Position numbers and translations under genes: made by a program. Positions 2 through 19,944 of a stretch of 27,571 nucleotides of DNA are shown one piece after another (the first letter of the stretch is position 1; every line of letters begins with the position of its first letter). Under the pieces are notes generated by a model. That model worked only from the letters and a program-made list of their open reading frames with translations. It did not search any database and was not told where the DNA came from. Source of the stretch: Aquificaceae bacterium (GTDB lineage Bacteria > Aquificota > Aquificia > Aquificales > Aquificaceae); the NCBI GenBank assembly GCA_041640635.1, contig JBEPZX010000015.1, forward strand, positions 1-27,571, read 5' to 3'.

Positions 2-3000
2 GCGGTATGTCCGCACGATACGGAAACAAAAAAAGGTATTAGGAGATGGCAAGAAATAGCGAAGGATATAAGTAAAATCATAAAAGAAGAGGTTGTATTT
101 GAACCTTTCAAAGACTTCCAGGATGAACTAGAAAAGCTCAAAACACAAACTTACCATATCTACTATGCTAACCTTAATGCGGCTACGGAGCTTTTTAAAA
201 AAGGTTATAAAGTAGTAGGAACGTATAAAGAAGAAAAAGAGACGGGAATATTCTTAAAGAGAAAAGACCGAAAACTGGGAAAGTACATCAAATTAGCCTC
301 AGTGAAAGTACCTATAGTAGTCTTTCCATTTGTAATGTCTAACCTAGATATTCAAAAAGTGGATCTCTTACTTTTCAGCAGCTTCAAACAAGCTATGTGT
401 GCTCTGAAAGAAAATGTAGCCAATCTTGCCTTGGTACATTCTGAAACATACAAGCAAATGGAAAAAGAAAACTGGTTTGAAAAGTACTCTGAAGTGTCTA
501 TACCTCATATTCACTTTTTTATGGTACACCCAGATGTTGAAGAAAAACTTACAAAAACTCTTCTTTCTCTACCATATATCGAAAAAGTCAAGGATTTTGA
601 GTTCGAATATATATTAGCCTTTAACAGACTTGCTAAAGCTTTCTTGGAAACTACAGAAAGTATTCAAATCAAAAAAGCCATAGACAACTCACCTCAGGTT
701 ATGCACACTATCCACAAAAACACAATTGCATATGCTAACGATATTTTCTGTAAAACCTTAGGTTACCAAAAAGAAGAAATCCTCAATACCAACTTGATTG
801 AGTATATACAAGATCAAGAAGTCAAAGAAAGAATAACAAAAGACATACAAAGACAATTAAAAGGTGAAAATGTAGTAGCTTTTTACCCCAACGTGAAACT
901 CCTGGCAAAGGATAAAAGTGCTAGATACTTTAATATCTATTCTAACACCATCGTATACGATGGATCTTATTCTACCTACATATTAGCTGTTGATATTACA
1001 AGAGAAAAAAAACTAGAAGTTCTCAAAAACCTTCTTCATAAGATAAACAGAGCAGCTTCAGGTTCACTCTCTGAACATGAACTCTACCAGAGGGTATGCA
1101 AAGCTTTAGTGGATGATGTTGGCTTAAGAATGGCATGGGTTGGGGCACCGGGAGAAGACAAGTGGTTTAAAGTTCTTTGCTCTTACGGCTTTCTTGATGG
1201 ATACCTTGATAACATAAAGATCTACAGCACTCCAGAACTTCCAGAAGGCAGAGGTCCAACAGGCACAACCTATACTACAGGAGAAGTCATTATAATAGAC
1301 GATACTAGAACCAACCCTAGGTTTACACCTTGGAAAGAAAGAGCCATACAGAGAGGATACTTATCTGTAGCTGGAATTCCTATAAAAAGAAAAGGTAAGG
1401 TTTTGGCTGTTCTAACTATGTATGCTGATGAACCTAACTTTTTTGATGAGGAGACAAGACAGGTCTTAGAACAGCTCAGTAGTGACCTTAGCTTCTTCCT
1501 TGAATTTATAGAGCAATTAAAGAGTTACTCGATAATAAACACAGCTTTAGAAAATTCAGATACATGGGTTTTGGTAACAGACACAGATGGAAATATCCTG
1601 TATGTAAACGATGCTGTAACAAGAATAAGTGGTTATACAAAAGAAGAGTTAATAGGCAAAAACCCAAGAATCTTTAAGTCAGGTTACCAAAGCAAGAACT
1701 TTTATAAACAACTCTGGGACACTATACTGTCTGACAAAGAGTTTGAATCAGTATTCGTAAATAGATCTAAATCAGGAAAACTTTTATACTTACACCAAAG
1801 AATTATCCCTGTAATTCTTCCAGATGGTACAAAGAGATTTGTGAGTGTAGGTAGAGATATAACAAAAGAACACCACATGTCAGAGGAGATACAAAGGTTA
1901 AACTATTACGATCCCCTGACCGGGCTTTTAAACTACAGGGGTTTTCGTAGAAAACTTGAAGATGTTTTACCAAAAACAGAAAAAGCCTTCTTAATATTGC
2001 TGGATATTAACGGCATGTCTTATATAAACTATACATACGGTATGGAAAAAGGTGATATGTTAATAAAAGATATAGCTTATAAACTAAAGAACCTCGAAGA
2101 AAAGGGCGCAATTGTGGGTAAGTTTAGCGGAGATGAGTTTGGTGTATTAGTAGCCAGCGAAAATATAAAAGCCCTAAACTATGCACTAAATGAAATAGAT
2201 GATGTATTTAAAAATCCAATTCAGATAGGAGATGTGAGCGTAAGCGTAAGCTATAACGCAAGTGTGGTGACTTATCCCCAACATGGTAAGCGTTTAAATG
2301 AGCTTTATGGATATGCTGTGGCTCTCTTAAAAGAGGCAAAATCAAAAGGAGAAGGTGTGGTTCTCTTTTATGATAAAAGCTTATTAGAAAAAATAAGTTC
2401 TCTTTTTCATAGTAAAAGTTTGATAGAAAGAGCGTTGAGAGAGAATTTATTCACCTTTTATTACCAACCATACTATGACCTAAAGACTATGCAGATAGCA
2501 GGGTTGGAAGCTCTTGTGAGGATAAAGTTACCAGATGGCAGTGTACTTTTACCTGCGGTATTCATAAGAGAACTCGAGGAAGGTTCATATAAGAACCTTT
2601 TAGCCTTTGAAAAATGGGCTATAAACTACATAGCGCAAAAAGCTGCAAACTTTGGTTTACCTGTGAGCGTAAACTTATCGGCTAGAACACTTTCTAAAAA
2701 AGATTCTATATCTGAGCTTTTGAAGGTAAAAAGAGGTTTTGGCAACCACGAAGTAACATTAGTAGTAGAGATAACAGAGAGAGTTATGTTGGATATAGAT
2801 CCTTCTGAATTTGCAAATATAGTGGTACTTCTAAAAGAAAATAATGGGAAATTTAGAATAAAGGTTTCAGTGGATGATTTCGGTACGGGCTATTCGTCAC
2901 TCTCTTACATAAGAAACATGCCTGTGGATGTTGTAAAACTGGATATGAGTTTTGTTCGCCCAATAGATGTAGAAGATAAAGCAAGAAAGTTTTTAGCAGA

Positions 3001-3163
3001 CGTAATAAAACTCTTAAAGGATTTAGAGTATCAAACATTAGCAGAAGGCGTGGAAACACAAATACATGTAGAACTTCTTGAACAAATGGGATGTGATTAT
3101 GCACAAGGTTACTTCTTCTGTAAGCCTGTTCCAGAAGAAGAGATTATAGAATTGATTAAGTAA
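2..3163 (+). CDS. PAS-GAF-PAS-GGDEF-EAL c-di-GMP signalling protein, paralog 1 (5'-partial; true start lies just before the window)
   Basis: Frame is open from nt 2 (GCG GTA TGT CCG CAC GAT = AVCPHD, matching the N-terminus of the 3336 paralog) into the 302..3163 ORF. Motifs: PAS (YANDIFCKTLGY; YVNDAVTRISGY...GKNPRIFKSG), GAF (GRGPTG...WKERA...GYLS), YYDPLTGLLN, SGDEF, GLEALVR, DDFGTGYSSL, AEGVET, YAQGYFF. Confidence 0.93.
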   Translation, partial: AVCPHDTETKKGIRRWQEIAKDISKIIKEEVVFEPFKDFQDELEKLKTQTYHIYYANLNAATELFKKGYKVVGTYKEEKETGIFLKRKDRKLGKYIKLASVKVPIVVFPFVMSNLDIQKVDLLLFSSFKQAMCALKENVANLALVHSETYKQMEKENWFEKYSEVSIPHIHFFMVHPDVEEKLTKTLLSLPYIEKVKDFEFEYILAFNRLAKAFLETTESIQIKKAIDNSPQVMHTIHKNTIAYANDIFCKTLGYQKEEILNTNLIEYIQDQEVKERITKDIQRQLKGENVVAFYPNVKLLAKDKSARYFNIYSNTIVYDGSYSTYILAVDITREKKLEVLKNLLHKINRAASGSLSEHELYQRVCKALVDDVGLRMAWVGAPGEDKWFKVLCSYGFLDGYLDNIKIYSTPELPEGRGPTGTTYTTGEVIIIDDTRTNPRFTPWKERAIQRGYLSVAGIPIKRKGKVLAVLTMYADEPNFFDEETRQVLEQLSSDLSFFLEFIEQLKSYSIINTALENSDTWVLVTDTDGNILYVNDAVTRISGYTKEELIGKNPRIFKSGYQSKNFYKQLWDTILSDKEFESVFVNRSKSGKLLYLHQRIIPVILPDGTKRFVSVGRDITKEHHMSEEIQRLNYYDPLTGLLNYRGFRRKLEDVLPKTEKAFLILLDINGMSYINYTYGMEKGDMLIKDIAYKLKNLEEKGAIVGKFSGDEFGVLVASENIKALNYALNEIDDVFKNPIQIGDVSVSVSYNASVVTYPQHGKRLNELYGYAVALLKEAKSKGEGVVLFYDKSLLEKISSLFHSKSLIERALRENLFTFYYQPYYDLKTMQIAGLEALVRIKLPDGSVLLPAVFIRELEEGSYKNLLAFEKWAINYIAQKAANFGLPVSVNLSARTLSKKDSISELLKVKRGFGNHEVTLVVEITERVMLDIDPSEFANIVVLLKENNGKFRIKVSVDDFGTGYSSLSYIRNMPVDVVKLDMSFVRPIDVEDKARKFLADVIKLLKDLEYQTLAEGVETQIHVELLEQMGCDYAQGYFFCKPVPEEEIIELIK

Positions 3164-3335
3164 CATAATAGATGATTAAATAAAATCCAAGTTTTACACT
3201 AAAATTATCAAATCTTTTGGATAAAAAAATGAAATAATTACTTATAAGAGTATTCTACAATATGTAAATAAACGAATCTAAAACTTGATTAAATACTTAG
3301 CTTGATACAAATCCAACCTTATATTTTAAGCTATA

Positions 3336-6300
3336 ATGATAGACATGTTATATTTAGCGGTATGTCCGCACGATACGGAAACAAAAAAAGGTATTAGGAG
3401 ATGGCAAGAAATAGCAAAGGATATAAGTAAAATCATAAAAGAAGAAGTTGTATTTGAACCTTTCAAAGACTTCCAAGATGAAGCACAAAAATTAAAAACA
3501 CACACCTATCACATCTACTATGCCAACTTAAACACTGCCAACGAGCTTTTCAAAAGAGGTTACAAAGTAGTAGGAAAATACACAGAGACAAAAGATACAG
3601 CCATTCTCTTAAAAAGAAAAGATGAAAAACTAAGAAAACACGTAAGGTTAGCATCTGTAAAAGTGCCCATAGTAATTTTCCCTTTGGTAATATCAGGTAT
3701 TGGCATTGAAAATATAGATGTATTACTCTTCAATAGTTTCAGAGAAGCTCTAAATGCATTAAAAGAAAACCTGGCTGACCTAGCGCTGGTTCATTCTGAG
3801 TTTTACAAACATATGCCCAAAAAGAAGTGGCTCGAAGAATACTCCAGTTTATACGTGCCCCAAGTTCACTTTTTCATGGTTCATCCAGATATTGAGGAAA
3901 AACTCACAAAAGCCCTCCTCTCATTGCCATACGTCGAAAAAGTCCAAGACTTTGAATTTGAACACGTTCTTGCCTTTAACAAATTAGCCAAGGCATTCTT
4001 AGAAACTACAGAAGGTATTCAAATCAAAAAAGCTATAGACAAATCTCCATACGTTATGCACATAATACACAAAGACACTATCGTATACGCTAACGACGCT
4101 TTCTGCAAAACCTTAGGTTACGAAAAAGAAGAAATTCTTAACACTGAACTAACAGACTACATAATAGATGAAAAATTAAAGGAAAAGATAAAAAGGGATA
4201 CACAAAGACGTATGAGAGGTGAAAAATCAGAAAGTGTATATTCAGAAATTAAGCTTTTAGCAAAGGACAAAAGTGCTAGATACTTTAACATTTACTGTAG
4301 CAGTATCCTATACGATGGCTCTTTTGGTACATACATTCTTGCAATAGACATGACAAGAGAGAAAAAACTTGAAATTCTTAAAAACCTTCTTCATAAGGTA
4401 AATAATGCTGTAGCTGGATGCCTTTCTGAGAAAGAACTTTACCAAAAGGTATGCAAAGCTTTAGTGGATGATGTTGGCTTAAGAATGGCATGGGTAGGAA
4501 CTCCGGGAGAAGACAAGTGGTTTAAAGTTCTTTGCTCTTACGGCTTTCTTGATGGATACCTTGATAACATAAAGATCTACAGCACTCCAGAACTTCCAGA
4601 AGGCAGAGGTCCAACAGGCACAGCATACTCTACTGGAAAGGTAACAATAGTAGATGACATGAGAACTAACCCTAGATTTTCACCTTGGAAAGAAAAAGCC
4701 CTAAAGAGAGGATACTTATCATCGGCTGCCATTCCCTTAAAAAGGGATAAAAAGATTATATCTGTTTTAAATGTTTATGCTGATGAACCCAACTTTTTTG
4801 ATGAGGAGACAAGACAGGTCTTAGAACAGCTCAGTAGTGACCTTAGCTTCTTCCTTGAATTTATATATCAAGTAAGAAAACAAGTAATAGTGACTACAGC
4901 TTTAGAAAATTCAGATACATGGGTTTTGGTAACAGACACAGATGGAAATATCCTGTATGTAAACGATGCTGTAACAAGAATAAGTGGATACTCCAAAGAA
5001 GAACTCATAAACAAAAACCCAAGAATCTTTAAGTCAGGTTACCAAAGCAAGAACTTTTATAAACAACTCTGGGAGACTATACTGTCTGACAAAGAGTTTG
5101 AATCAGTATTCGTAAATAGATCTAAATCGGGAAAACTTTTATACTTACACCAAAGAATTATCCCTGTAACTCTTCCAGATGGTACAAAGAGATTTGTGAG
5201 CGTAGGTAGAGATATAACAAAAGAACACTACATGTCAGAGGAGATACACAGAATAAACTACCACGATCCAGCGACTGATCTTTATAACTACAGAGGCTTC
5301 TATACCAAACTTGAAGACATATTGCCTAAAACAAAAAAAGCCTTCCTAATATTGCTGGATATTAACGGCATGTCCTTCGTAAATTACACATACGGAATTA
5401 AAAAGGGAGATATGCTCTTAAAGGATATAGCTAAAAAATTGAAGAGCTTCATAAAAGATCATACAATCATAGGCAGGTTAGGTGGAGATGAATTTGGTAT
5501 ACTCATACCTACAGAAGATGTAAAAAGTCTAAGTCTAGCCCTAGATACTATTGACAGTATCTTTAAAAAACCTATACAGGTAGGAACGGAAAGCATAAGT
5601 GTAAGTTATAACGCTAGCGTAACTGTGTATCCAGAACATGGTAAAAGTTTAGATGAACTCTACGAACATGCTACGGCGCTTTTAAGAGAAGCAAAGTCCA
5701 AAGGAGAAGGTATAGTTCTCTTCTATGAAAAAGGTATATTTGAACAAATACAATCTTATATGCAAACTAAAAGTTTAATAAAGAGAGCTTTGGAAGAAAA
5801 TCTCTTTGTGTTTTATTACCAACCATACTATGACCTAAAGACTATGCAGATAGCAGGTCTAGAAGCTCTTGTGAGGATAAGACTACCAGATGGCAGTGTG
5901 CTTGCACCTGCAGTATTCATAAGAGAACTCGAGGAAGGTTCTTATGTAAACTTACTGTCTTTTGAGGAATGGGCAATAGATTACATTGCTAGGAAATCAA
6001 TAGAGTTTGGTTTACCAGTGAGTATTAACTTATCGGCAAGGACGCTTTCCAAGAAGGACTCTATCAATAAACTTTTGGATATAAAGGAGCATCTAAAGTC
6101 ATATAAGGCTACACTAGTAGTTGAGATAACGGAGAGAATTATGTTGGAGATGCCTCCTTCTGAATTTACTAAGATGGTGAAGTTTTTAAAGGAAGGTAGC
6201 CCCAATTTTAAGATAAGAGTTGCTATAGACGACTTTGGTACAGGCTATTCTTCACTATCTTATATAAGGGATATGCCAGTAGACATTGTTAAGTTGGATA

Positions 6301-6524
6301 TGAACTTTGTCCATCCTATAGAGGAAGGCTCCAAGGCTCGTGAGTTTCTAAGACATACAATATCACTTTTGAAAGCCTTAGGCTACGAGACATTGGCAGA
6401 GGGAGTAGAGACACAGACACAGCTGGAACTTCTCAAACAAATGGGATGTGATTATGCACAAGGTTACTTCCTCTGTAAACCTGTTCCAGAAGAAGAGATA
6501 AAAAGTATCCTGAAGCTAAACTAG
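3336..6524 (+). CDS. PAS-GAF-PAS-GGDEF-EAL diguanylate cyclase/phosphodiesterase, paralog 2 (alternative start ATG 3345)
   Basis: 1062-aa ORF with RLGGDEF, GLEALVR, IDDFGTGYSSLSY, AEGVET, QGYFL motifs. Collinear with paralog 1 at a 3355-nt offset. Confidence 0.95.
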   Translation: MIDMLYLAVCPHDTETKKGIRRWQEIAKDISKIIKEEVVFEPFKDFQDEAQKLKTHTYHIYYANLNTANELFKRGYKVVGKYTETKDTAILLKRKDEKLRKHVRLASVKVPIVIFPLVISGIGIENIDVLLFNSFREALNALKENLADLALVHSEFYKHMPKKKWLEEYSSLYVPQVHFFMVHPDIEEKLTKALLSLPYVEKVQDFEFEHVLAFNKLAKAFLETTEGIQIKKAIDKSPYVMHIIHKDTIVYANDAFCKTLGYEKEEILNTELTDYIIDEKLKEKIKRDTQRRMRGEKSESVYSEIKLLAKDKSARYFNIYCSSILYDGSFGTYILAIDMTREKKLEILKNLLHKVNNAVAGCLSEKELYQKVCKALVDDVGLRMAWVGTPGEDKWFKVLCSYGFLDGYLDNIKIYSTPELPEGRGPTGTAYSTGKVTIVDDMRTNPRFSPWKEKALKRGYLSSAAIPLKRDKKIISVLNVYADEPNFFDEETRQVLEQLSSDLSFFLEFIYQVRKQVIVTTALENSDTWVLVTDTDGNILYVNDAVTRISGYSKEELINKNPRIFKSGYQSKNFYKQLWETILSDKEFESVFVNRSKSGKLLYLHQRIIPVTLPDGTKRFVSVGRDITKEHYMSEEIHRINYHDPATDLYNYRGFYTKLEDILPKTKKAFLILLDINGMSFVNYTYGIKKGDMLLKDIAKKLKSFIKDHTIIGRLGGDEFGILIPTEDVKSLSLALDTIDSIFKKPIQVGTESISVSYNASVTVYPEHGKSLDELYEHATALLREAKSKGEGIVLFYEKGIFEQIQSYMQTKSLIKRALEENLFVFYYQPYYDLKTMQIAGLEALVRIRLPDGSVLAPAVFIRELEEGSYVNLLSFEEWAIDYIARKSIEFGLPVSINLSARTLSKKDSINKLLDIKEHLKSYKATLVVEITERIMLEMPPSEFTKMVKFLKEGSPNFKIRVAIDDFGTGYSSLSYIRDMPVDIVKLDMNFVHPIEEGSKAREFLRHTISLLKALGYETLAEGVETQTQLELLKQMGCDYAQGYFLCKPVPEEEIKSILKLN

Positions 6525-16633: not shown

Positions 16634-18118
16634 TTACTCATATATGCAAATATGAAAATCATGAAAGTTTTTCCCTTTTTTTGTATCTTGTATAAATCTT
16701 AAAAGCCTTGACTCTGAACCTGTGTATAATCTAAATGTTTTTAGTGGTTCACATTCCAAAAAGCTACCTTCTTTGTATATAACTATAGAACCTTTTTGCG
16801 GTTCTTGGTTTCTTATTATCTTCCTTTGGGCATAAAAGGGTAAATTATGATTGAAATGTCCTACCTGGTAAGTTTCTACCCTACCCTGCGGGTCTAAACT
16901 TCTAATAAAACTTCCTACATCCTTGTAATGTCTATAGTTTTCTAACCAAGGGAGAAGACCCAAGTTGAATACCAAAAGAAACATCACCATAGCATAAGCG
17001 GGAGCAAGTTTTGTGTATTTCCACAAAAAGAAAGGCAAAAAAAGAAACAACAAAAGAAATTTAAAATCTAAATTGAAGTAAAAAATTAGAATTAGGCAAA
17101 CCAAAGATATAAAAATGGATAAAAAGTAAGATGAATACCTCTTTAGTTTTTCCCAAGAGGAACTTACTAAAAAACCTGCTGTCATAACAGCCAATGCTGG
17201 ATATGCTGGCATTACATAAACAGGGATTTTTTGCTTGACAACACTAAACAAGGTAAAGATAAAAAAGAACCAAGCCAAAAAAATAAAATGATTTTGCCTT
17301 TGTTTAAAGACAACCCAAAACAAAGCAAAGAAGAATAAAAAAGAGTAAGGTAGAAAACTCACAAGCAAATCTAAATAGTAAAAATAAAAAGGTTCACCAC
17401 CTGAGTAAATACGCTTAAAGTTTTCTTTGTAAAAAATTTCCCAAAACAACTTCCCTTTATCAAAAATTTGGTAAACATGCCACCAAAGACCCAAAATTAG
17501 AGATACAAAACTTAAAAGGTAGTATTTTAGCTTCAAAAGCTCAGAGGGATTGGCAACAAGAAGGTACAGAAAAACTACTCCCGCTGGTAAAACAAAACCA
17601 GCTGGCCCTTTTACAAGCATAGCCAAAGAAGCAGCCAAAAAGGCAAACACAATAAAAAAGTTATTTTTTCTGATGTATCCCACATACCACAGATAAATAC
17701 TAAGTGTGATAAAAAAGGTAAAAGGCATTTCTGGAGATGCATAATGGGCGTTGGCATATATGGTAAGACTCAAAGAAAAAATTATGAAGCTATATGTAGA
17801 AATTGTTTTAGATTTGAAAACTTCCCATGCAAGTAAAGCTGTTACAACTCCAGTAAGCAGTCCAAGTAAAACATGCATAAACCTAAGTCCTAATTCGTTA
17901 ACACCAAAAATTGAGTAGCCTAAAGCCACAATCCAATATGTCATAGGTGGTTTGTTAAGTCTTATTTCGCCGTTGTAGTATGGTGTAACCAGATTTTTAG
18001 TTTCTAACATATAGCGGCTTGCGTCTGCATAAAAGGCTTCGTTGGGAGACCAAACCTGGAAGGACCAAAAGTTTAAAAAGTAAACGAGTATGGTAAGTAA
18101 TACTAAAAGATATGGCAT
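16634..18118 (-). CDS. ArnT/PMT-like (GT-C fold) membrane glycosyltransferase
   Basis: NEAFYA..SR.M, P.YNGE.RLNKPP..YW, LVKGP.G, K.P.Y.MP.YP motifs; many transmembrane segments. Start taken at ATG 18118 (GTG 18139 is possible). Confidence 0.88.
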   Translation of the reverse strand: MPYLLVLLTILVYFLNFWSFQVWSPNEAFYADASRYMLETKNLVTPYYNGEIRLNKPPMTYWIVALGYSIFGVNELGLRFMHVLLGLLTGVVTALLAWEVFKSKTISTYSFIIFSLSLTIYANAHYASPEMPFTFFITLSIYLWYVGYIRKNNFFIVFAFLAASLAMLVKGPAGFVLPAGVVFLYLLVANPSELLKLKYYLLSFVSLILGLWWHVYQIFDKGKLFWEIFYKENFKRIYSGGEPFYFYYLDLLVSFLPYSFLFFFALFWVVFKQRQNHFIFLAWFFFIFTLFSVVKQKIPVYVMPAYPALAVMTAGFLVSSSWEKLKRYSSYFLSIFISLVCLILIFYFNLDFKFLLLFLFLPFFLWKYTKLAPAYAMVMFLLVFNLGLLPWLENYRHYKDVGSFIRSLDPQGRVETYQVGHFNHNLPFYAQRKIIRNQEPQKGSIVIYKEGSFLECEPLKTFRLYTGSESRLLRFIQDTKKGKNFHDFHICIYE

Positions 18119-18188
18119 GCAAAATTCATTATAAATCACTGGGTGGTATTTTAGGTCTTTATCTTGGTGTTAATATAATATTCTAAGA

Positions 18189-18850
18189 AATTTCACATAC
18201 AATCTGAAATCATTGATATAACTAAATTCAAAATATTGATTTATATCATATTCATAAACATAATATACTTTCAAGATTTTGATTTTCCAGCATTTTACTA
18301 AATATATGATGTTAATATAATGTAACAAGCATAAAACCCTTGATTTATCTATATTTAATGGAGAATTTCACACCTCTCAAAAATCTTACGAAAAATCAAG
18401 GACTTACAAACAAAGAATTTCACATAAAATCTCACATAAATCTCACAATTTCACATACCCTTCATGTGGAATTTTTACATTGTTCGTAAGTCCCTGAAAT
18501 ATCGAAATTTTTCCAAAAAGAATTTCACATATCCCAAACACTACTCTATCAAGGATTTAAGAAGAATTTCACATATCTTAATGTAAGTCCTTGAAAAATC
18601 GAAGAAAATTTTCGTCGAAAAATGAGTGACTTAGAGGAAGAAATGTGAAATTGTGAAATTCGTACCAGAACTCCTTGAAATTTCGACATTTTTTCTATTT
18701 TAATCTCATCCTACTCTATCAACGCTCTCAAATATGCACCTGTGAAATTCTTTCTAAAAAATTACGGAAAATCAGGAACTTACAAAAAGGGGGTGTGAAA
18801 TTTATGCCGCCTATTATTTTAATTATCTATAATAAGTAATTAATAATAGA
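18189..18850. other. Repeat-rich non-coding element, candidate chromosomal replication origin (oriC)
   Basis: AATTTCACA at 18189, 18364, 18416, 18447, 18521, 18565; its reverse complement TGTGAAATT at 18644, 18652, 18741, 18794; variants at 18428, 18439, 18465; interleaved 19-bp IHF-like motifs; AT-rich end at 18811-18862. The repeats are certain; origin function is inferred. Confidence 0.62.
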
Positions 18851-18879
18851 GAGTATAAAATTAGGATAATAAGTAGAGG

Positions 18880-19944
18880 ATGAATAAAGAAAAATTTTTT
18901 TCTTACTTTCTTTTGGGTCTCACAGCTCTGTTCATAGTAGTTTTAGCATACATGCTTCAATGGTTTATAAAACCAATAATTTGGGCACTCATATTTGCTT
19001 TGATCGCTTATCCAATTCATATATGGATGACAAGGTTAATAAGGTATAGGACTGTTTCTGCATTAATCATAGCCACTTTTGTTTTTCTTATTATAGTTAT
19101 ACCTACTTTTGTTATAGGCTTTCTTGTTGTCCAAGAGGCATTTAATCTGACCTATTACGTAGTTCAGTTTATGCAAAATCATGATTATGTAAACTTAACT
19201 CAAGATTTGATAAAAAAACCATGGATAGAAAAACGCATCGGTAAAGAAAACATAGATAATCTTCTAAACTATATACAAAGTGATTCTTTCAAAAACCATA
19301 TTTTTTCTTTTTTTAGTGAGTTGTTAAAAAGACTAGGAGAGACCACAACCGCCATGATCATAAATACGGGTAATGTAATATTCAAGACCTTTATTTTCCT
19401 CCTAACCTTCTTTTTTATACTAAGGGATGGGTATAAATTTTTCGAATTCGTAAAAGAATTAATTCCGATGGAAATAGAAGATATTGTAAAGATATCCACT
19501 ACGGTTTATAAAACTGTTTTATCTGTTGTATACGGATCCATATTTATAGCTATAGCTCAAGGTGTAGCTAGCTTTGTTGCTTATGTAATAATTGGTTATA
19601 AATACTCCCTCTTACTTGCTTTTGTTACATTCGTAGCATCCTTTATACCTCCCTTTGGTGCATCCTTTATATGGGTACCTGTAGCAATATACACATTCTT
19701 TAAGTTAGGTGTATACAAAGGTATATTTATGATTTTATACGGAACGTTAATTATATCGATGATGGATAATATATTGAGACCACTCTTTATGAAAAAAGAT
19801 GTAAATTTACCTTATATAGCTCTCTTTTTTTCCATACTAGGTGGTCTGTATACCTTTGGCTTTATAGGATTGTTTTTGGGACCTATTTTGTTTACCACTA
19901 CTGTTACACTTCTTTCCATTTACAAAAAGCGTCTTTTAAGCTAA
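18880..19944 (+). CDS. AI-2E (PerM/UPF0118) family membrane transporter
   Basis: Hydrophobic 354 aa; FFILRDG, AIAQG, SFIPPFG..FIWVP, MDNILRP, GG...FGFIGLFLGP motifs. Confidence 0.9.
   Translation: MNKEKFFSYFLLGLTALFIVVLAYMLQWFIKPIIWALIFALIAYPIHIWMTRLIRYRTVSALIIATFVFLIIVIPTFVIGFLVVQEAFNLTYYVVQFMQNHDYVNLTQDLIKKPWIEKRIGKENIDNLLNYIQSDSFKNHIFSFFSELLKRLGETTTAMIINTGNVIFKTFIFLLTFFFILRDGYKFFEFVKELIPMEIEDIVKISTTVYKTVLSVVYGSIFIAIAQGVASFVAYVIIGYKYSLLLAFVTFVASFIPPFGASFIWVPVAIYTFFKLGVYKGIFMILYGTLIISMMDNILRPLFMKKDVNLPYIALFFSILGGLYTFGFIGLFLGPILFTTTVTLLSIYKKRLLS

Follow-up and report, generated by a model that had tools for sequence, protein, structure and literature searches.

A predicted chromosome replication origin with a likely recoded DnaA box in the Aquificaceae

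The window analyzed here, 27,571 nucleotides of DNA in all, comes from a hot-spring Aquificaceae bacterium whose assembly (G000) comprises 1.43 Mb in 52 contigs and is 98% complete. Its single large intergenic gap, already singled out in the initial annotation and here predicted to be oriC, spans 18140..18879 (740 bp, 27% GC); the second-largest gap between the 21 ORFs taken as genes measures 266 bp. The gap separates two divergent genes, an ArnT-like glycosyltransferase gene on the minus strand (16634..18139; NCBIfam E 3e-33, under the cut-off) and, to the right, an AI-2E family transporter gene on the plus strand (18880..19944). An Rfam match inside the latter gene was rejected (E 0.049, 22.9 bits against 54). 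That these neighbors are not dnaA, dnaN or gidA was confirmed: the one dnaA match of the assembly lies on contig C19 and dnaN on C21, and full-length GidA/MnmG found no match in the 98%-complete assembly. At 302-6524 the window has two tandem, near-alike genes of 953 and 1062 aa that look like PAS-GAF-PAS-GGDEF-EAL genes, with domains read off the translation. Translations of the genes at 6646-27278 suggest a sulfurtransferase, a DegT-type aminotransferase, motA/motB, a UvrD/Rep helicase, a class II aldolase, a malate dehydrogenase-like gene, rpoD, purA, hflX, a sodium-symporter and a lipoate ligase-like gene.

Ten exact copies of the 9-mer AATTTCACA and three near-copies stand in the gap, and all coordinates and strands given for them initially were verified. 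A solitary distal box (18189..18197, plus strand, exact match) is followed by a forward array on the plus strand (18364..18573), which holds exact copies at 18364, 18416, 18447, 18521 and 18565, AATCTCACA at 18428 and 18439, and one near-copy at 18465 (TGTGGAATT; AATTCCACA in reverse) that is a reverse site within the forward array. The reverse array on the minus strand (18644..18802) consists of exact copies at 18644, 18652, 18741 and 18794. As claimed before, all six exact forward copies lie to the left of all four exact reverse copies. Boxes of the forward array are retained in the related genome G001 and mostly in G007. Another word, GTTAATATAAT, occurs to the left of the arrays at 18168-18179 and 18310-18321, and GTTAATATA is found in origin regions of the genera g1, g7 and g10 (14 loci), in one g6 locus and in no g12 locus; these words may possibly represent a -10-like promoter word or a site for another origin-linked protein.

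Genome-wide, AATTTCACA occurs 26 times, and with 10 of these copies in the gap and at most two in every other 700-bp stretch, it forms the one dominant cluster that the initial annotation expected. The gap is also the top cluster among all 9-mers of the 1.43-Mb assembly. In dinucleotide shuffles of the gap, none of 2000 contained more than one exact copy of AATTTCACA, and the highest count reached by any 9-mer in 300 shuffles was 6. Because the total of AATTTCACA sites with up to one mismatch across the whole window shows no excess (18 against a chance mean of 15.9), the signal is the clustering of copies. The 9-mer matches the consensus TTWTNCACA at 7/9, as stated earlier, and the single word TTATCCACA at 5/9 (4 mismatches), while TTWTNCACA itself never exceeds three sites per 700 bp anywhere in the assembly. 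The sole other pair of AATTTCACA copies (L014:1501-1520, or G000:C3:20437-20456) is spaced by 11 bp and lies at a gene's 3' end, ahead of a 227-bp gap; it is possibly a DnaA regulatory site or a product of chance.

Two further groups of features, the unwinding element at 18806-18861 and repeats of the IHF consensus, were absent from the initial annotation. In our scan, the end of the IHF consensus was widened to TTR (A or G). With this wider form of the consensus given in the available part of PMC10325909 (WATCAAnnnnTTA), the gap contains 4 perfect sites, or 11 if one mismatch is allowed. Neither count is exceeded in any of 3793 genome windows, where the gap ranks first for both, and the count of 11 was reached by 3 of 500 shuffles. 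One IHF-consensus-like site with one mismatch, at 18770..18782 on the plus strand, lies 41 bp upstream of the first DnaA-trio described below. The others lie within 18206..18596, with perfect matches at 18229(-), 18272(-), 18394(+) and 18547(+) and one-mismatch matches at 18206(-), 18226(+), 18269(+), 18333(-) and 18584(-). A second repeat family of about 20 bp (D2, D4, D5) overlaps or contains these IHF-consensus sites. Three HU/IHF-family genes are present in the genome, and their best NCBIfam matches are IHF alpha/beta, all under the curated cut-offs.

The predicted unwinding element adjoins one side, the right, of the box cluster. It begins with a GC-rich motif, GCCGC (18806..18810, plus strand), immediately 5' of three in-frame DnaA-trio-type triplets (18811..18819, plus strand; CTA TTA TTT, opposite strand 3'-GAT AAT AAA-5'), and continues in an AT-rich tract (18812..18861). 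The 50-mer at 18812 falls in the lowest 0.0001% of the genome by stability, a value calculated from nearest neighbors only and without a supercoiling model. A regular expression for a box, a short spacer, the GC motif and the start of a trio run had a single match in the assembly, at the gap. A second trio-like run at 18836-18847 on the minus strand faces the first across the AT tract and is preceded by a box with two mismatches; it is not kept in G001 and is probably due to chance.

According to the available part of PMC8287927, the BUS rule calls for a GC-rich spacer followed by three or more in-frame trios, with a forward box of up to two mismatches no more than 16 bp ahead of the trios. 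The window has the trio part of this rule (18811-18819), but at these conserved trios it has just one reversed exact box, that at 18794, whose end lies 8 bp ahead of the first trio and which points away from it, so that the box part of the rule fails. Other loose NTN runs in the window satisfy the bare rule, none of them known to be conserved.

The cluster is shared with other Aquificaceae, as the initial annotation had suggested looking for. A paired AATTTCACA pattern was found in 26 of 90 family genomes, exclusively in the four genera g1, g7, g10 and g12 (hereafter the AATTT genera), and its backwards control in none. With follow-up searches, a AATTTCACA-type cluster was present in 37 of the 45 genomes of these genera; six of the eight genomes where it was missing are 54-87% complete, and the other two, G071 and G072, are 94% and 90% complete. 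Pattern searches found no box cluster in g5, g8, g11 or G071. Tight TGTGGA(T/A) arrays were detected with a neutral three-box pattern in g4, g6, g3 and g9, genera in which 23 of 33 genomes carry arrays of TT(A/T)TCCACA instead. An exact GCCGCCTAYTAYT pattern (13/148 genomes) was rejected as too strict and as also matching non-origin DNA, and seven loci without a box cluster were dropped, six from this pattern (G035, G049, G046, G009, G026 and G108) and one from a separate pattern search (G072). Pooled box fractions are biased upward, because positions 4 and 6-9 are fixed in the box filter and because a AATTTCACA pattern served to find most of the AATTT loci; with this bias, 258 of 353 filtered boxes in 34 genomes of the AATTT genera are AATTTCACA, and the commonest boxes in 23 genomes of g4, g6, g3 and g9 are TTATCCACA (103 of 253) and TTTTCCACA (63). 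Intermediate boxes occur in G002 and also in g10.

Where a cluster was found, there is one such locus per genome, uniqueness being checked in full in G000 and with the exact word in four relatives, except for the drafts G083 (L028/L170) and G101 (L145/L149), which have two separate clusters each. Bin contamination is the likely cause, with two origins as the alternative. The second clusters of both drafts were excluded from the box counts, and that of G083 was kept as a row in the sets for trio orientation, IHF position and box position 5.

For trios in relatives, a regular expression that missed most origins was replaced with a scoring matrix from 10 seeds, which include the window, G014 and five further g4 loci, and the scores of the seed loci are therefore not independent of the matrix. 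Among 27 AATTT-group rows, the nearest box is reversed at -8 to -10 in 21 and reversed at -56 to -78 in 5, with one doubtful pick; with the box filter applied, none of the 27 showed a forward box in the 16 bp ahead of its trios. In G010, a degenerate forward word stands 4 bp ahead of the trios. In g4, a canonical forward box stands at -13/-14 in 6 of 7 genomes. A reversed trio-proximal box is also carried by G034 and by all three g3 rows, and the flip of this box is thus not tied to the recoded word. An IHF-like site with up to two mismatches lies at -39 to -43 from the first trio in 29 of 36 origin rows, that is, rows with a clear trio run once the doubtful trio picks of G088 and G096 were left out. 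Five g12 genomes (G069, G076, G085, G086 and G084; L020, L023, L029, L030 and L171) have 6-9 boxes downstream of the trios, which would put the unwinding element within the cluster instead of at one edge in several genomes of this genus.

Distances between cluster and dnaA vary widely, from 2.6 kb in G017, through about 16, 35 and 41 kb in G091, G066 and G014, to 363-480 kb in G012 and G002, and in 4 of 9 single-contig or near-complete genomes (G058, G069, G010 and G006) the cluster lies nearly opposite dnaA. Among 33 dnaA-flanking stretches of the AATTT genera, one has a box cluster, which is the G017 cluster itself. In 32 loci compared, the AI-2E gene stands beside the cluster in four (window, G001, G007 and G010, from three genera), the ArnT-like neighbor is common to the window and G001 only, and the remaining flanks differ by genus. 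Strand skew at four-fold sites and gene direction were examined in three relatives without a usable skew signal, G012, G058 and G069 (20 x 20 kb, 400 kb each); no switch appeared at the cluster (12 tests, p 0.41-0.96), and in one of these tests gene direction in G069 leaned to dnaA over the cluster (score -0.195, p 0.96). The dif survey PMC3025954, consulted for a marker of the terminus, lists no Aquificae in its main text or the two supplements searched.

Substitutions in the recognition helix of DnaA, which the initial annotation proposed to inspect, are present. In E. coli numbering (1J1V), the G000 protein has K399, E400, S423, S436 and Y439; its basic loop reads KDTKERK where E. coli has KRRSRS, and its helix DHTSVLY where E. 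coli has DHTTVLH. Base-contact positions of DnaA include 399 and 432-439, as given in the available part of PMC5043019. In genomes with both DnaA and a cluster, the main box switch amounts to about one evolutionary event and hence gives no statistical co-evolution of box and DnaA, but the two groups differ sharply: E or D at 400 is found in 29/29 of the AATTT group and 0/22 of the other group, Y439 in 29/29 and 3/22, K399 in 26/29 and 1/22, and T436 is absent in 29/29 and 3/22. In a quick DnaA tree, labeled by genus and including genomes without a found cluster, a well-supported branch separates the two groups and places G002 and g5 with the AATTT genomes. Across the Aquificaceae, the same layout is kept while the 9-mer switches together with DnaA domain IV.

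Since K399 and Y439 also occur in the DnaA chain of 3PVP, and three genomes (G012, G083 and G073) keep R399 with AATTTCACA boxes, neither residue alone explains the box, and R399K was rejected as the cause of the AA shift. Box position 5 appears to follow residue 436. Where 436 is aromatic (F/Y/H/W; 7 genomes, of which G078 and G057 were examined after the guess was made and both fitted), T stands at position 5 in 37 of 70 AATTNCACA boxes, and where it is S or A (24 genomes) in 178 of 186; G087, with I436 and T in 4 of 5 boxes, was kept out of both sets. Aromatic residues at 436 arose four times independently and go with a relaxed position 5, with 3-4 of 4 independent pairs in the predicted direction and 0 opposite, which is not significant (p 0.125-0.25). 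This tracking is suggestive of DnaA itself reading the word.

Other DnaA variants occur in the family. The g5 proteins (L084 and L085; G005 and G015) sit on a long branch within the AATTT group and have a strongly diverged helix, GHTWAVN; as no box cluster was found there, the g5 origin may use yet another word. In g11, DnaA (L080-L083) has the helix SHSSV(N/T)H, its open frames are long (478-532 aa from stop to stop in the eight genomes of this genus), and CACA-type patterns found no g11 origin.

A locus of boxes and IHF sites could also serve to titrate or recycle DnaA, as datA/DARS-like regulatory loci do, with the true origin elsewhere. The combination of boxes with many IHF-like words would suit such a locus, as would the distance of the cluster from dnaA, often half a chromosome, and the absence of a skew switch in three relatives. 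However, the conserved GC motif, the trios and the extremely unstable AT tract are features of origins, the 98%-complete assembly has no second box cluster, and the 33 dnaA-flanking stretches of the AATTT genera hold no cluster other than that of G017, 2.6 kb from dnaA. We therefore regard a purely regulatory locus as highly improbable. It is likewise very unlikely that the gap is the origin while a protein other than DnaA, such as a clade-specific regulator, reads the 9-mer and DnaA uses weaker sites. Four mismatches separate AATTTCACA from TTATCCACA, the second conserved repeat family would point to other proteins binding here, and the changes in DnaA residues are not one-to-one with the box; yet the 9-mers stand where TTATCCACA arrays stand in sister genera, the intermediates of G002 and g10 bridge the two words, and position 5 follows residue 436 in 3-4 of the 4 independent pairs without a contrary case.

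TTTCAC is similar to a half-site of parS, and TCACA to one of CRP. These resemblances favor reading the cluster as an array without a role in chromosome initiation, be it of partition (parS-like) sites, iterons or CRP/FNR-type operators, which we consider extremely unlikely. That no ParB-family gene was found in the 98%-complete G000 assembly lowers the case for partition. With every reverse copy standing to the right of every forward one, no exact copies make up TGTGA-N6-TCACA, which speaks against a CRP/FNR array. As to iterons, no tandem repeats of 17-22 bp beside a Rep gene were found; no Rep gene is nearby and the neighbors are housekeeping genes. Moreover, vertical conservation across many genera despite changing flanks argues against all of these arrays.

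Taken by its sequence features, the gap at 18140-18879 is thus very probably the chromosome replication origin (oriC), and AATTTCACA is likely the recoded DnaA box of this lineage. The initial annotation had proposed a replication origin or another DnaA-binding cluster with a shifted box, and this proposal is supported by the unique cluster, its conservation, the helix substitutions and a trio/AT element homologous to that of the predicted Aquifex aeolicus origin. In the proposed mechanism, ATP-DnaA would bind the arrays through domain IV, an IHF/HU-family protein would introduce a bend at the site lying 41 bp ahead of the trios, and a DnaA oligomer looped onto the trios would melt 18811-18861, where the helicase may then be loaded. 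As no forward box precedes the trios, looping or a swiveled domain IV is likelier than a filament growing from an adjacent forward box. Beyond this, we tentatively suggest, as a possible rather than a probable scenario, that the Aquificaceae record a natural stepwise recoding of the DnaA box from TTATCCACA through TTTTCCACA and ATTTTCACA to AATTTCACA, in which box position 5 is set by DnaA residue 436, a residue that lists of base contacts usually lack, and the 5' AA goes with an acidic residue 400, and in which trios are melted without an adjacent forward box, fed by reversed boxes via an IHF-like bend. If true, trio melting by way of reversed boxes and an IHF-like bend would be a route outside the adjacent-box filament model and the BUS search rule.

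Our results offer a precise, testable candidate origin for a family without usable GC skew and with scrambled gene order, in which the E. coli box finds nothing. The recoded 9-mer and the changes at predicted DNA-contact positions of DnaA also mean that standard origin finders would likely miss the gap. A. aeolicus DnaA serves as the field's structural model. Hence, sister genera in which the box is recoded, together with the graded intermediates, make a ready set for DnaA-code swaps, in which residues of domain IV could be exchanged along with boxes and in which the need for a trio-proximal box directed at the trios could be examined. In the supplement of PMC8287927, as far as available, the DoriC-derived row of Hydrogenobacter thermophilus TK-6 gives a dnaA-side interval for which the E. 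coli box was used and whose trio score is 5, whereas A. aeolicus scores 19; if Hydrogenobacter belongs to the AATTT group, this DoriC entry is probably misplaced. The eight Aquificae rows seen in the same supplement have other, standard motifs. Among the literature matches listed, from a search that left DoriC itself and subscription papers outside, no publication deals with a AATTTCACA box or an Aquificaceae origin of this type; the Ori-Finder 2022 supplements have no match for it, and the available parts of PMC4285127, PMC6669920 and bioRxiv 2020.07.08.193532 contain nothing on this box or origin.

The nearest known counterpart is the predicted oriC of A. aeolicus VF5 (DoriC ORI97017010; BUS row in Tables S1/S2 of PMC8287927, seen in part), an anchor that is itself a prediction. 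The box cluster of G014 is flanked by a letter-for-letter copy of the published A. aeolicus BUS row (PMC8287927 Table S1), and its DnaA agrees in domain IV, along the compared stretch, with the A. aeolicus chain of PDB 1L8Q. G014 and the window have the GC-trio junction GCCGCCTATTATT in common. Like the window, the VF5 origin is monopartite and away from dnaA, with a distal forward and a proximal reverse array, an IHF-like word about 40 bp (40-41) before the first trio, the identical GCCGCCTATTATT junction and an AT tract. The two differ in their boxes (AATTTCACA in the window, TT(T/A)TCCACA in A. aeolicus), in the trio-proximal box (reversed at 8 bp against forward at 13 bp), in the number of trios (three against seven) and in the loop and helix of DnaA (KDTKERK/DHTSVLY against SDKRNKR/DHTTVIH). 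The Bacillus subtilis-type BUS, as presented in the available part of PMC8287927, shares with the window a box, a GC-rich spacer, at least three trios and an AT-rich tract, and differs in that the trio-proximal box of the window is reversed.

That an oriC may use lineage-specific boxes is already known from the TCATTCACA-type box of Helicobacter pylori and the 12-mer of Thermotoga maritima, where, as here, the box is recoded along with changes in helix 5 of domain IV (PMC8235120, PMC5043019 and PMC10316083, each in the part available). H. pylori shares T at box position 5 with AATTTCACA (available parts of PMC8235120 and PMC5043019). Nevertheless, the word differs from those of both species, and here positions 1-2 change from TT to AA; moreover, R399 is kept in all epsilonproteobacteria examined in the available part of PMC5043019, whereas it is mostly K in the AATTT group. 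T. maritima DnaA oligomerizes on inverted boxes, according to the available part of PMC10316083. Such oligomerization suggests that a reversed trio-proximal box is workable.

In E. coli, the array beside the unwinding element does not point away from it, whereas that of the window does. In other respects, judged from the available parts of PMC10316083 and PMC10325909, E. coli oriC resembles the window in having two opposed arrays, an IHF consensus near the unwinding element and this element on one side, and it differs in having one IHF-like word where the window has many.
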